This document shows, piece by piece, positions 58,053 through 63,600 of a stretch of 64,000 bases of DNA. The translations under genes were made by a program, and so were the position numbers. This stretch comes from Escherichia coli. GTDB taxonomy: Bacteria; Pseudomonadota; Gammaproteobacteria; Enterobacterales; Enterobacteriaceae. How positions within the stretch are numbered: the stretch's first letter is position 1; each line of letters begins with the position of its first letter. Below the pieces are notes generated by a model. It saw only the letters and a program-made list of their open reading frames with translations, was not told where the DNA came from and searched no databases. The DNA lies in assembly GCF_003334255.1 (NCBI RefSeq), contig NZ_QOWU01000014.1; one strand, 5' to 3'.

Positions 58053-59966
58053 TTACTTACGACCTGCCAGCAGTTCCAGCACTTCATCCACGCTGGTGGT
58101 GTGTGCCAGACGCTCGATGACGGACTCATCATCCAGTGCATTGGTCAGGCTGGTGATAACCTGAATGTGCTCGTTGTTACGGGCAGCAATACCAATCACC
58201 AGACGGGCAATGTCATCTTCTTCTTCACCGAAGCGCACGCCTTCCGGGTACTGGCAGAACACGACGCCCGTTTTCAGTACGCGATCTTTCGCTTCAACCG
58301 TACCGTGTGGCACCGCGATAGACTCACCCAGATAAGTCGGGGTCAGTTTTTCACGATCCAGCATCGCCTGAACGTATTCCGGCTCAACGTAACCGCCTTT
58401 CACCAGCTGCTCGCCAGCAAAACGAATCGCTTCTTCTTTGGTTGCCGCTTTGCGACCGAGGAAGATGTTCTCCGCGCCTAGCTTGAACAGGTTAGCACTG
58501 GAATCGTCAAAGCTGTCTTTCAGGCTGTCTTTTACTTTCTCTTCGTTTGCCGTGTGGCGTTGGGCAGCAACCAGACGTTCGGTCAGGCTGGTGTACAGGC
58601 CGCTGTCGAGGAAGTTGGTCAGCGAAATATGCTGTGCCTGCGGAACCTGGCGCATAGCGCGTTCGGTCAGGTCACGGTGAGTGATGACGAGGTCCACATC
58701 TGGCGGCAGGTTGTTGATCGCGCTGTTAGTAACAGAAATCTGCGACAGACCTGCATCCTGAATTTTCTTACGCAGAACGCCTGCGCCCATCGCACTGGAA
58801 CCCATACCGGCGTCACAGGCAACGATGATTTTACGTACGTGGCTCAGGTCGTTAGTCACATCGCCAGCAGACAGCGGAGATGCGCCTTTAGACTCAGCTT
58901 TCATGTCCTGCATACGACGAGTTGCTGCTTCAATATCATCTTCTTCTTTCACTTTGCTGGTTTTCAGCAAAATAGCAGAGACAACGAAGGAGACAGCCAT
59001 CGCCGCACACACACCCGCGATGTTAGCGAAGTAAGCACCTTTTGGTGTCATCGCCAGTACAGCAAGGATAGAACCCGGAGATGCCGGAGAAACCAGACCA
59101 CCGCCCAGGATAGTCAGCGTGAACACGCCAGTCATACCGCCGAGGATGACTGCGAGGATCAGACGCGGATTCATCAGCACATACGGGAAGTAGATTTCGT
59201 GGATACCCCCCAGGAAGTGGATGATTGCCGCACCGCCCGCAGACTGTTTAGCGCTACCACGACCAAAGAACATGTACGCCAGCAGCACGCCCATACCTGG
59301 ACCTGGGTTAGCTTCAATCAGGAAGAAGATTGATTTACCCAGTTCATGGGACTGCTGAATACCCAGCGGCGAGAAGATACCGTGGTTAATGGCGTTGTTG
59401 AGGAACAGGATTTTCGCCGGTTCAACAAAGATAGACGCCAGCGGCAGCATGTCATGGACAACCATGAAGTTAACGCCCGCAGCCAGCATTTTGGACAGGG
59501 CTTCAACAATCGGGCCAATGCCGAGGAATGCCAGAATAGCGAGGATCATCCCGATGATGCCTGCGGAGAAGTTATTCACCAGCATCTCAAAACCGGATTT
59601 GATCTTACCGTCTACCCAGCGGTCGAAGTGCTTAATGCACCAGCCGCCCAGCGGACCTGCAATCATAGAACCGAGGAACATCGGCATGTCTGCGCCGACG
59701 ATAACGCCCATGGTGGTGATGGCACCGACTACGCCGCCACGTTCGCCGCCTACCAGCTTACCACCGGTATAACCGATCAGCAGCGGCAGGAGATAAGTGA
59801 TCATCGGCCCGACCAGCTTCGCCAGCGTCTCGTTCGGTAACCACCCTGTTGGAATAAATAACGCGGTGATGATACCCCACGCGATAAACGCGCCGATATT
59901 TGGCATCACCATGTTGCTGAGGAAACGACCAAAGCTTTGCACTTTGATCTTAATATCGGATGACAT
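58053..59966 (-). CDS. mtlA: PTS mannitol-specific EIICBA
   Basis: 637 aa [30 protein letters not shown]... Confidence 0.97.
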
Positions 59967-60109
59967 AAAAACACCCCTTCTTATGTTTGCTGTCGCGCAG
60001 GCTGGAAGCCCGAGGTTTTTTGTTAATGTGGCGGCAGAGGTAGCCGGACCTTGTAGATACTGCGAAATCTGGCACTGAATCGGTTAACTGTCCAGTCGAC
60101 GGCCTTTTG

Positions 60110-60125
60110 TGTGATATCAATCACA
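60110..60125. promoter_or_regulatory. CRP-binding site TGTGATATCAATCACA in mtlA upstream region
   Basis: TGTGA-N6-TCACA palindrome. Confidence 0.65.
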
Positions 60126-60226
60126 TAAATATAGGGGGTAGAGAGGTAATTGACGTGACGTTCATCACAAAACGCTTGTGTAAAAAAGCAACAAGGCGGC
60201 GATTTTCGCTAAAAATGGCATTTAAA

Positions 60227-60242
60227 TGTGAGTAGTGTCACA
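60227..60242. promoter_or_regulatory. CRP-binding site TGTGAGTAGTGTCACA in mtlA upstream region
   Basis: TGTGA-N6-TCACA palindrome. Confidence 0.6.
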
Positions 60243-60270
60243 TTTTTGTTTTGATGGTTTGTTGAATCTT

Positions 60271-60286
60271 TGTGATCTGAATCACA
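60271..60286. promoter_or_regulatory. CRP-binding site TGTGATCTGAATCACA in mtlA upstream region
   Basis: TGTGA-N6-TCACA palindrome. Confidence 0.65.
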
Positions 60287-60502
60287 AGATATTTTCTTAC
60301 GGCGTTCACCTGATGTGATCTACAGCATGTTATGCCTTCGTCATACAATCGTTATGTAACTAAGCAACTCATCACCTCTAAAAATTATTCTTTGGTGTTA
60401 TGGCGAGAATCGCGAACCCGGATTATTGTCAAAATATCAGCCTGACTCCCTTCTGGCTGCCAGCCCAAAAACAACACTGATAAACGTGAATCCGAGGCAG
60501 AT

Positions 60503-60865
60503 ATGTTTCTAAACTATTTCGCGTTGGGAGTGCTGATCTTCGTCTTTCTGGTGATTTTTTATGGAATCATCGCGATACATGACATCCCTTATCTGATTGC
60601 CAAAAAGCGCAACCATCCCCATGCCGACGCTATTCATACGGCGGGCTGGGTGAGCCTGTTTACTCTGCATGTTATCTGGCCGTTTCTGTGGATCTGGGCG
60701 ACGCTCTATCAACCGGAGCGTGGCTGGGGTATGCAGTCACATGTTGCGTCGCAGGAGAAAGCGACTGACCCGGAAATCGCCGCACTTTCTGACCGAATTT
60801 CCCGGCTGGAGCATCAACTCGCCGCCGAGAAAAAGACTGACTATTCCACGTTCCCGGAGATCTAA
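60503..60865 (+). CDS. yibI: DUF3302-like small inner membrane protein YibI
   Basis: 120 aa ORF with two TM segments; 2 nt before yibH. Confidence 0.85.
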
Positions 60866-60867
60866 TT

Positions 60868-62004
60868 ATGGATCTATTGATTGTTTTAACTTACGTGGCG
60901 CTGGCGTGGGCGGTCTTTAAAATCTTCCGCATTCCGGTAAATCAGTGGACGCTGGCGACGGCGGCGCTGGGAGGCGTGTTTCTGGTGAGTGGTTTGATTT
61001 TGTTGATGAACTACAACCACCCTTACACTTTTACCGCGCAAAAGGCAGTGATAGCGATCCCTATCACGCCACAGGTGACGGGAATTGTTACTGAAGTCAC
61101 TGACAAGAATAATCAGCTTATTCAAAAGGGCGAGGTGCTTTTTAAGCTCGACCCGGTTCGTTACCAGGCGCGAGTTGACAGACTTCAGGCTGACCTGATG
61201 ACGGCGACGCATAATATAAAGACGCTGCGTGCGCAGCTCACTGAAGCGCAGGCCAACACCACCCAGGTTTCAGCGGAGCGCGACCGTCTGTTTAAAAATT
61301 ATCAACGTTACTTGAAAGGCAGCCAGGCGGCGGTGAATCCGTTCTCGGAACGTGACATCGACGATGCGCGGCAAAATTTCCTCGCGCAGGATGCGCTGGT
61401 GAAAGGCTCGGTGGCGGAGCAGGCGCAGATCCAGAGCCAGCTCGACAGTATGGTTAACGGCGAGCAATCGCAGATTGTGAGCTTAAGAGCGCAACTTACT
61501 GAAGCAAAATATAACCTTGAGCAGACTGTCATTCGCGCGCCGAGCAATGGCTACGTTACTCAGGTACTGATCCGCCCAGGTACATACGCAGCTGCCTTGC
61601 CGCTGCGTCCGGTGATGGTCTTCATCCCCGAGCAAAAACGGCAAATTGTCGCCCAATTTCGGCAAAACTCGCTGTTACGTCTGAAACCCGGCGATGATGC
61701 GGAAGTGGTGTTTAACGCGCTACCTGGGCAGGTGTTTCACGGCAAACTGACTAGTATTTTACCTGTCGTGCTAGGCGGTTCTTATCAGGCGCAGGGGGTA
61801 TTGCAATCATTAACGGTCGTGCCCGGCACGGACGGTGTGCTGGGAACCATTGAACTGGACCCTAACGATGATATCGATGCCTTACCCGACGGCATCTACG
61901 CCCAGGTGGCGGTTTACTCCGACCATTTCAGCCATGTTTCGGTGATGCGGAAAGTGCTGCTAAGAATGACCAGCTGGATGCATTATCTTTATTTGGATCA
62001 TTGA
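60868..62004 (+). CDS. yibH: HlyD-family membrane fusion protein YibH
   Basis: 378 aa ORF; N-terminal TM, coiled-coil, C-terminal beta-barrel HlyD-like region. Confidence 0.88.
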
Positions 62005-62463
62005 GGGGGAGGGGGGAGATTATGGAACTTTGCTCCTTGTAAGGACTAATTATTTTTGCATATTACTTCATTAGCTGCGATGATTTTTCTTTAATATTCA
62101 TTATGTTAATAAGTTCTGGATGAGTGTGCTCTCATTGGATTTTTTATCCGTCTTGTTCTGCCGCAGGATGAGACTATACATCGTCGAGATCGCAATGATG
62201 ATATGAGTTGTTCCTCCTGCGACGGCTCTAATCAAAAAAGAGCAGGAGTGCTTTTCCATCTATTGCGATGATGGCTTTATTATCTGAAGGATGACAGTCA
62301 CATTTAAAAAATATTTAATCTATAGATCACAATGTAGGGTCATGGAATATATGTATACAACTATTTTCTTCTTCACTTTTAATTATCGTATTCATTATAA
62401 AACTAAGTTAAAAAAACTCCTGGAGAGTGAGTTATTAATATATTTTTAAATAAAATTAAGTTA

Positions 62464-62984
62464 TCATTCATCGATGCACTTTATAGAATCATCAATGGCC
62501 ATAATAGTACTATTAACTCTCAATTTTATATTTTTATCATCACTACAAATATTAACTGAATTTATATCAATGATTTTTTTATTCTTATCTTTTATTTTAT
62601 TTACTGTTTCAATGCAATCAGCGGCAAGTTGGAGTGGATTTAGATTTTTCAGATATGGTCTTATGATCTTTCCCTTACTTAATAAATAGCATGTATAGGA
62701 TTCGGAAAGTCCAGCATCTATTTTGTACCTCATTATATTAGATAAGGATGTGAGAAATTCCTTGTTATCATTCGCAGCCATATATGCCAGTCCGAGTTCA
62801 GCCTCTGCGGCCTTACAGGCAAAATAGCTTAGTGAACACGCTTTTCGTCCCTCTTTAGTACTGGCTGATATTAGTGCCCATAATATTGCTTTGTCTGCCA
62901 AATCTAACTCTCTCTGAAATTGTCTTGCAGTAACTGCACTCGCAGAAATAGAGAAAAAAATACAATTGTTAATAATCTTGCCAT
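62464..62984 (-). CDS. Sel1-like repeat protein, putative Rhs-toxin immunity protein; in-frame ORF covers 62464..62901 only, upstream ATG (62982..62984) with signal peptide is out of frame across a T7 tract
   Basis: ORF track 62464..62901 starts at TTG; ATG 5 nt after the upstream CT ORF stop encodes MARLLTIVFF.. then frame is lost in homopolymer at 62954..62960; low GC. Confidence 0.45.
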
Positions 62985-62989
62985 ATTTT

Positions 62990-63600
62990 TTAGTCCGTAA
63001 CTGTTAATGTGCTATCTGGCTCTGAAAATATTAACTCATTTAATTTTTGCATGTCATTAGATAAACCAGTTATACAACCCTCGGAACAGAATCGAGGTCC
63101 TAAAGACGGACCAAAAGCGTTTAAACAACTATGTATTGAAAATCCATTGCGATTATAAGTTCCTGTATTAACTGACGGTACTAATCGTATGCCGTCAGGT
63201 TTTCTATTGCTTGCTCCCGGGTCATTAACATTCCAACTCCATAGGCCTTGAGGTATTGGCCATCTATTTATAAATGTGTACAACGGGGATTATTTTTACA
63301 TTGCATATTATTACCAGAAGCGACTGGAATACTAAGCACATCATAAAAATTATCATCACATGGTATATCTGAAACACACGAAAGCATACCTAAAGTTATG
63401 CTGTATAAACAGGTGGCTAATCCCAAGGGGATCGATTCCAGAAATCGGGTTCAACGGATACTGATAAAAATTCCACCTACCTTCCAGCCCAATCGGAGCC
63501 TGAGTGTTATACCGCCCCTGCTGCGGTTAATGTTACCGATAATAGTTATAGTACAGCCCTGATTCATCATCATACTACTGCTGCGGCAGTCTGATGAACT
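62990..63600 (-). pseudogene. degenerate orphan Rhs fragment: Rhs core C-terminal remnant (..[45 protein letters not shown]) plus C-terminal toxin-tip coding sequence split over three frames
   Basis: Manual translation of minus strand; ORF track shows only the 97 aa tail 62990..63283; stops and frame changes interrupt the core motif; no intact start. Confidence 0.55.

Follow-up and report, generated by a model that had tools for sequence, protein, structure and literature searches.

The window analyzed here is a stretch of 64,000 nucleotides from an Escherichia coli genome, toward the end of which a spacer of 459 bp (62005-62463) separates yibH from a frameshifted immunity gene. Alignment to E. 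coli K-12 MG1655 identifies this spacer as the yibV-yibH interval, in reverse orientation and with one base different. The gene order in MG1655 is rhsA, yibA, yibJ', yibG, yibS', yibW', yibV, yibU', yibH, yibI, mtlA, and the spacer accordingly occupies the distal end of the RhsA element; the yibF-yibH locus counts among 11 Rhs positions described for E. coli (PMC2935791). On one side, yibH is so annotated in MG1655 and in PGAP genomes, where its product is named "HlyD family secretion protein". On the other side, the gene adjoining the spacer is the last of an orphan Rhs toxin/immunity block. Its 145-aa ORF (62464-62901, minus strand), beyond which more short minus-strand ORFs are found, matches the Pfam family Imm57 (E-value 2.7e-48); PGAP labels the yibV locus "Imm57 family immunity protein, frameshifted", and Imm57 is intact in strain 201609 (173 aa). 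The neighboring toxin/immunity ORFs gave zero NCBIfam matches, their family assignments coming from Pfam. The orphan array beside the spacer consists of the yibS/yibW toxin remnants (Tlde1-like toxin remnant) and yibV/Imm57. C-terminal tips downstream of rhs genes have been described previously (PMC3032704), and the spacer closes one such array of orphan tips and immunity genes, but is itself devoid of Rhs core, toxin, or immunity homology. The features of the locus, in window coordinates, are the following:

58053-59966, minus strand: mtlA (ORF list)
60503-60865, plus strand: yibI (ORF list)
60868-62004, plus strand: yibH, encoding a membrane protein of the HlyD family, the final conserved gene ahead of the island (378-aa ORF)
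62005-62015, plus strand: G-rich run GGGGGAGGGGG that immediately follows the yibH stop codon and joins the yibH flank to island DNA
62012-62047, minus strand: likely remnant of a transposase gene 3' end and right terminal repeat (aligns with ISEc1 nt 1254-1291)
62069-62301, minus strand: core relic, an internal fragment of an ISEc1/H-rpt-like (ISAs1-family) transposase gene (blastn, tblastn, NCBIfam)
62101-62299, minus strand: pseudogene yibU (b4652), within the core relic (MG1655 annotation mapped via alignment)
62101-62259, minus strand: 52-aa ORF (ORF list)
62120-62206, plus strand: 28-codon ORF MSVLSLDFLSVLFCRRMRLYIVEIAMMI, antisense to the transposase relic (ORF list)
about 62261-62678, no strand: promoter island 3767592_418 (coordinates approximate, converted between genome versions)
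62291-62449, plus strand: 52-aa ORF, with GAAGG immediately abutting its ATG (ORF list)
62302-62463, minus strand: AT-rich segment reaching from the Imm57/yibV stop codon to the core relic, of 20% G+C and with a weak ISEc1 match
62382-62411, minus strand: promoter-like hexamers TTAACT...GATAAT, directed toward the relic and yibH (consensus scan)
62410-62428, minus strand: weak hairpin of 5 pairs, ACUCU-CCA-GGAGU, which resembles a terminator and has a U run after it (minimum-free-energy fold)
62464-62984, minus strand: Imm57-family immunity gene with a frameshift, named yibV in K-12, which ends the orphan Rhs toxin/immunity block

The original prediction described this interval as an AT-rich, non-coding spacer with no ORF of at least 60 aa on either strand, with short inverted repeats and with one short hydrophobic ORF lacking a convincing Shine-Dalgarno sequence, and most of this description holds. 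The G+C content of the spacer is 0.331, compared with 0.497 for the whole window and 0.527 for yibH, and is unevenly distributed (0.204 in 62302-62463, 0.399 in 62069-62301, and 0.406 in 62005-62068). The longest ORFs in the spacer are of 52 aa; the hydrophobic ORF is present at 62120-62206 on the plus strand, and the 15 nt (gttaataagttctgg) ahead of its ATG contain no Shine-Dalgarno-like motif. Neither the 28-codon ORF nor the 52-aa plus-strand ORF has an NCBIfam match; a weak hit to SocB_toxin among the short ORFs (E-value 0.0045) was dismissed as noise given its 16 bits against a 210-bit cut-off. An inverted repeat also exists, with 10-nt arms at 62162-62171 and 62212-62221 that are 90% complementary and 40 nt apart; it is unremarkable, as 571 bases hold 22 inverted pairs of comparable quality, this one included. 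As for the term non-coding, it is correct in that the spacer holds no intact gene, but it leaves out the annotated pseudogene yibU. In MG1655, yibU extends over NC_000913.3 3769948-3770146 (plus strand) and is the only RefSeq annotation within the spacer; it carries a pseudogene flag, its record is shown without a product name, and we found no function assigned to it in the open literature.

The spacer was also proposed to mark the boundary between core genes and the variable Rhs-linked region. A megablast search of complete E. coli genomes (query 61900-62600) detected the end of yibH in 5403 of 5426 genomes. By blastn the spacer is present in 3685 of them (68%), and about 32% of genomes lack the spacer yet keep yibH. 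In most of the spacer-less genomes that we sampled, homology stops at query base 106, that is, at window position 62005, one base past the yibH stop codon. The one spacer-less genome that was inspected lacks the entire RhsA element, and 70 bp separate its yibH from the start of yibF; alignment of this empty-site junction shows TGA-G in common on the yibH side and GCCATACTG... in common on the yibF side. Other arrangements were encountered as well. Genome L012 carries a fimbrial operon island after yibH, in place of RhsA, and its homology to the window stops at about 62015: it has GGGGGAAGGGG where the window has the G-rich run GGGGGAGGGGG, and past yibH nothing else is common to the two. This run is absent from the genomes in which 70 bp separate yibH from yibF (such as L004). 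In another genome an IS5-family element truncates yibH, and still others (e.g., H1) show IS1 insertions or deletions within the island end. Because homology to island-less genomes ends at 62005/62006, nearly the whole spacer is island DNA. There is indeed a boundary here, but it is situated at the left edge of the spacer (62005-62016) rather than within it, and different islands repeatedly meet the conserved genes at the position directly past the end of yibH.

What the original prediction overlooked is that the core of the spacer is a recognizable fragment of a transposase gene. When the spacer was searched against E. coli genomes with blastn, matches were of two kinds, the orthologous locus and transposase genes. 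Those of the second kind, found in thousands of E. coli genomes at a median of five places per genome, involve only query positions 163-395 (window 62301-62069), have 73-77% identity, and always fall under genes annotated as ISAs1/ISEc1 family transposase. The core displays 77% DNA identity (E-value 4e-40) to the ISAs1/ISEc1 transposase genes ydcC and ybfD. In pairwise alignment it corresponds to nt 284-517 of the 1137-nt ydcC gene (codons 95-173 of 378), from which it differs by one inserted nucleotide, two deletions of 1 nt each, and a lysine codon replaced by an in-frame TAG. Consistent results were obtained at the protein level: tblastn of YdcC returned two adjacent segments in different frames, with 61% and 56% identity and a combined E-value of 1e-13, and the VIAIDGKTL region of YdcC is kept in the relic as IIAIDGKAL. 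The stitched translation of the core matched the NCBIfam model NF033564 (transpos_ISAs1) with an E-value of 6.4e-14, over profile positions 68-138 of 314; its score of 51.9 bits lies below the 70-bit whole-protein cut-off, as is expected from a fragment spanning 71 of the 314 profile positions. Finally, PGAP annotates the same stretch of strain Z142-7 as [quoted passage not shown]. It is thus practically certain that the core (62069-62301) stems from the interior of an H-rpt-like ISAs1 element and has since decayed.

The ISAs1-family DDE transposase that such an element encodes is present as a fragment only: an intact frame of about 378 codons is absent, and what can be recognized are codons 95-173 and the last ~9 codons. 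These fragments, together with the three 1-nt indels and the TAG codon, indicate a relic of the ISAs1 family and not a working member. We found no closer intact parent when 1.84 billion representative proteins were searched exhaustively with HMMER; this search returned only ISEc1/H-rpt-type proteins and chimeras, with at most 65% identity over full-length-sized proteins. A word-indexed protein search retrieved only the relic's own short E. coli "hypothetical proteins", and the plasmid collection contained only other ISEc1-like copies, apart from chromosome-sized records misfiled as plasmids. Because the core diverges from ISEc1 by 23% at the DNA level, compared with about 2.3% between two intact ISEc1 copies, the parent may have been a distinct H-rpt subtype and not ISEc1 itself. 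As a side observation, H144 is another degenerate copy, and the P0017 contig is again H-rpt-like. The "H-repeat", of 1291 bp, has long been associated with Rhs elements. This association is also noted in PMC3032704, and in the open-access literature we found no description of this remnant in RhsA.

The spacer exists as two main alleles, with identity of at least 99% to the window in about 3350 records and of 90-95% in about 320. Compared with the second allele in three genomes, the window shows 26-28 differences plus 2 indels (6.1-6.5%), which by our own count from the alignment are spread across all three pieces of the spacer considered here (62302-62463, the core, and the yibH-proximal part). 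In the same comparison, divergence amounts to 2.6-6.3% at third codon positions of yibH and to 7.3-7.7% in the Imm57 gene; that of the spacer is no lower than that of the yibH third positions, and no constraint was detected on it. The second allele carries changes in both arms of the inverted repeat that, judged by eye, do not restore pairing. Conservation across E. coli genomes, which the original prediction had named as a check, speaks against a small RNA, a structured 3' UTR, or a small protein: the spacer is absent from about one-third of the genomes and its two alleles, about 6% apart, drift without detectable constraint. The second allele lacks the 1-nt insertion and is 78-81% identical to ISEc1, against 76-77% for the window allele. 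Being nearer to ISEc1, with one frameshift fewer, it indicates that the allele of the window and of K-12 is the more decayed of the two.

To delimit the element, we defined the ends of ISEc1 from two intact copies, at the ydcC locus and in the Rhs region of strain 201609, which share exactly 1291 bp; its terminal repeats are CAGGGAAAGATCACG... and CAGGGCAAGATTACG.... On the yibH side of the core, 62012-62047 aligns with ISEc1 nt 1254-1291, which comprise the last 28 nt of ydcC and the right end, the relic stop codon being at 62020-62022. Within the 64 nt adjoining yibH, AGTCCTTGCAGGGAGCAAAGTTCCATAATCT of the less decayed allele aligns with AGTCCTTGCGGGGAGCGGGCTTTCGTAATCT of ISEc1, with a z-score of 4.45 and none of 400 dinucleotide shuffles as good. 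The match is weaker and more eroded in the window allele (z 1.84, 30/400 shuffles as good). In our own reading, the right end translates as LVLAGSKVP* in the alternative allele, against SVLAGSGLS* in YdcC, with the stop codon in register. We consider it likely from these alignments that the right-end piece derives from an ISAs1-family element. Between this piece and the core, continuing core homology is visible by eye in 62048-62068 (21 nt) and is not significant.

The evidence is thinner on the opposite side. The AT-rich segment (162 nt), which is single-copy in E. coli, aligns collinearly, with many gaps, to ISEc1 nt 47-193, that is, to the region upstream of the transposase gene and its first codons. 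This alignment has z-scores of 3.0-3.3, with 2-4 of 400 dinucleotide shuffles as good, and controls against its reverse complement or the element's other half gave no signal for this segment; the assignment is suggestive only, because another control reached a z-score of 2.8. Given a gapped alignment of AT-rich DNA, with a z-score of about 3 and one negative control so close to it, 62302-62463 could instead be the native 3' flank of the Imm57 cassette. We lean slightly toward regarding this piece as the decayed left part of the element. The left terminal repeat and a target-site duplication were not found, the left end being missing or unrecognizable; a 10/13 match to the left terminal repeat inside the 3' end of Imm57 was judged to be due to chance.

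Taken as a whole, the spacer is very likely a decayed insertion-sequence remnant of the ISAs1 family (ISEc1/H-rpt type). Under this scenario, an ISAs1-type element would once have sat at the distal end of the RhsA island, downstream of the last orphan toxin/immunity pair. Two internal deletions would have removed roughly nt 194-427 and 662-1253 of this element, and the remaining sequence would then have decayed through point mutations, frameshifts, and the gain of a stop codon. This would leave three collinear pieces, namely a possible left part (62302-62463), the core (62069-62301), and the right end (62012-62047), the latter abutting the G-rich run. Directly observed are the identity of the core, its place within the island, the presence/absence pattern, and the lack of constraint, and the alignments suggest that all three pieces probably come from a single element and that events probably followed this order. 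The relic resembles ISEc1/H-rpt elements (ydcC, ybfD, yhhI) by its 77% identity over codons 95-173, its collinear right end, and its association with Rhs. It differs from them in that it keeps about 420 of 1291 bp, has two large internal deletions and no left terminal repeat, and can neither transpose nor encode a transposase. With respect to yibU of MG1655, the locus is the same, but transposase homology exceeds the annotation (62069-62301) and further pieces of the element are probably found on both sides.

An alternative is that the AT-rich part is more than debris and functions as a promoter island or as a nucleation site for H-NS, kept because it silences the toxin/immunity block or insulates yibIH. 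Using an offset between U00096.2 and U00096.3 that we take to be +1977, the published island 3767592_418 is placed at about 62261-62678. This island, listed as yibV(+)/yibH(-), is among the 78 "promoter islands" of K-12, is bound by H-NS in all ChIP studies compared, and overlaps a predicted genomic island (Panyukov and Ozoline 2013, PMC3661553, Table 1). Moreover, the RNA polymerase holoenzyme binds there in vitro: genomic SELEX identified a "constitutive promoter" yibV>yibU with hexamers TTAACT/GATAAT (Shimada et al., PMC3946193). In addition, 62410-62430 is invariant between the two alleles. On the other hand, a simple sigma-70 consensus scan, which differs from the PlatProm method of the authors of the island study, counted 6 promoter-like sites in the spacer for 4.9 +/- 2.0 expected from dinucleotide shuffles, so that these sites are no denser than composition predicts, any excess over the genomic average being accounted for by composition, and the binding of H-NS and polymerase may follow simply from a G+C content of 20%. 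Between alleles, about 9 of the 162 positions plus an indel differ in the AT-rich part (our own count), near the rate in the rest of the spacer, and strains that lack the island altogether do without such an element. Island 3767592_418 does take in the AT-rich part together with the 3' end of yibV, but the published island covers only about 62261-62678 and promoter-like sites do not exceed shuffles here. Maintenance for such a role is compatible with the relic explanation, to which it adds little, and we find it unlikely. That the decayed element binds RNA polymerase and H-NS, as published, is accounted for by its being AT-rich foreign DNA. Promoter islands are reported to bind RNA polymerase and to yield very little full-length RNA (PMC3661553), and from this literature the spacer is probably kept transcriptionally quiet by H-NS.

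A more speculative variant would combine an H-NS nucleation point and spurious promoters in the AT-rich part, tuning the toxin/immunity genes or the convergent yibIH, with, separately, an exported short RNA originating from the G-rich start of the yibH 3' UTR; we hold it to be very improbable. The weak hairpin at 62410-62428 lies 36 nt downstream of the Imm57/yibV stop codon, in the invariant stretch, and falls below the threshold of our terminator scan because it has only 2 G-C pairs; according to the fold prediction, it could be a candidate end of the orphan toxin-immunity transcript.

The original prediction also suggested that the spacer could hold a 3' UTR or a small RNA. The specific form considered here is that its yibH-proximal part is the yibIH 3' UTR and yields a stable or exported small RNA. 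Since the consensus scan found no terminator-like site inside the spacer past the stop codon, yibH transcripts must end somewhere in it, and the tables of PMC8082180 list extracellular RNA reads of 12-50 nt whose 5' end falls at NC_000913.3 3770242 (minus strand), that is, at window position 62005, labeled "yibH 3'-UTR". However, the counts given in these tables are "67/0" (Suppl. Table 2) and 68/0 in the second one, a signal that is unreproduced if the two numbers are replicates, and by our own inference the reads begin in the G-rich run, where short reads map poorly, so that we regard them as weak evidence. Nor did the sequence itself behave as that of a structured RNA. A permissive Rfam search of 61500-63000 gave no E-value below 1 (best 1.2), all matches being far below gathering scores and to eukaryotic or archaeal snoRNA/lncRNA models, at chance level. 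Folding was compared with shuffles for four segments of the spacer and for the empty-site intergenic region: the yibH 3' end (61995-62090) had a z-score of -0.32, the AT-rich part was worse than shuffles (z +1.76), and only the 86 nt around the inverted repeat were marginal (z about -2, equaled by 4/200 shuffles, on both strands). In addition, a TCCT/AGGA stem at 62037-62048 loses a pair in the second allele in our reading, 6 of the 64 yibH-proximal positions differ between alleles, and the sequence is missing from the ~32% of yibH-bearing genomes noted above. With no Rfam match, scan-detected terminator, conserved structure, or detectable constraint, we give very little credence to a small RNA or a structured 3' UTR.

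The remaining suggestion, a small hydrophobic protein encoded by the 28-codon ORF or another short ORF of the spacer, can draw on the ATG start, the hydrophobic product, and the equal length of this ORF in both natural alleles, but is hardly credible, as it has no Shine-Dalgarno sequence upstream, no NCBIfam family, and no MG1655 RefSeq gene, lies antisense to the transposase reading frame, and shows no sign of purifying selection (6 base differences give 3 amino-acid changes, L4N, F13I, and M17I, too few events to be informative), while a 1-nt deletion in the second allele shifts the frame of the 52-codon plus-strand ORF. Antisense to a transposase frame, long open frames may arise by chance, and we judge the 28-codon ORF to be such a chance ORF.

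These data indicate that the yibV-yibH interval is very likely a decayed insertion-sequence remnant that encodes nothing functional and evolves without detectable constraint. The gap was already known as a catalogued pseudogene, yibU, and as a published H-NS-bound promoter island, and is not a new gene or RNA. To this, the present analysis adds the exact placement of the boundary, a drift without detectable constraint, and a probable single-element origin, by which the whole yibV-yibH interval, beyond yibU, would derive from one decayed H-rpt/ISAs1 element. Removing a candidate for a new gene or RNA matters little by itself; the refined boundary and the single-element origin may nevertheless help to reconstruct how the RhsA island was assembled.

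Directly 3' of the yibH stop codon lies a site at which junctions recur, and at least five states of it exist among the genomes compared. The junction sites that were compared are the following:

62005-62016, in the window
L004:8106-8175, the 'empty' site of a genome without the RhsA island
L012:4106-4250, in a genome with a fimbrial island after yibH
L013:4040-4140, a further locus in the comparison

The states of this junction can be described as follows:

State 1, the RhsA island
State 2, an island with a fimbrial operon
State 3, yibH followed directly by yibF, with 70 bp between them
State 4, an IS5-family insertion, with yibH truncated
State 5, an island end altered by IS1 insertions or deletions

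The 'empty' yibH-yibF site contains 32 bp that are unique to it, within which we found the 10-mer TTATATCACC (L004:8108-8119). The same 10-mer is also present in the rhsA-yibF intergenic region of the island-bearing K-12 strain MG1655 (L001:2040-2060), and it may be a trace of island gain or loss, or else a chance occurrence.

A G-rich run located 3' of the yibH stop codon (window 62005-62015; L012:4106-4116) is common to genomes carrying the Rhs island and the fimbrial island, and was not found in the single empty-site genome inspected. The reported start of extracellular RNA reads falls on this same run (window 62005-62015). As for base composition, a dip to 35-36% G+C also occurs elsewhere in the window, in the mtlA-yibI intergenic region (60100-60400).

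The spacer is adjoined by an orphan module, composed of a Tlde1-domain toxin remnant and an Imm57 immunity gene:

62464-63355, minus strand, orphan toxin/immunity module in the window
L005:3067-4000, the same module in strain 201609

Both genes are broken in the window and in K-12, the toxin gene being yibW' and the immunity gene yibV, which carries a frameshift. Strain 201609 has intact versions of the two genes: the toxin gene product is 135 aa long and matches the Pfam Tlde1 domain (E-value 2.2e-7), and the Imm57 protein is 173 aa long.

Three database proteins (P0015, P0017, and P0019) consist of the N-terminal part of an H-rpt transposase, cut after ~100-230 residues and followed by unrelated sequence, which in P0019 is an Rhs-like end (...YDPLQGRYITQDPIGLKGG...). 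These proteins look like chimeric ORFs that arose at truncated H-rpt copies. An intact 1291-bp copy of ISEc1/H-rpt is found in strain 201609 (L005:1641-2931), in the same distal region of RhsA and between Rhs fragments. This copy lies ~1 kb from the decayed transposase relic of the spacer, so that live and dead copies of the element coexist in one island.
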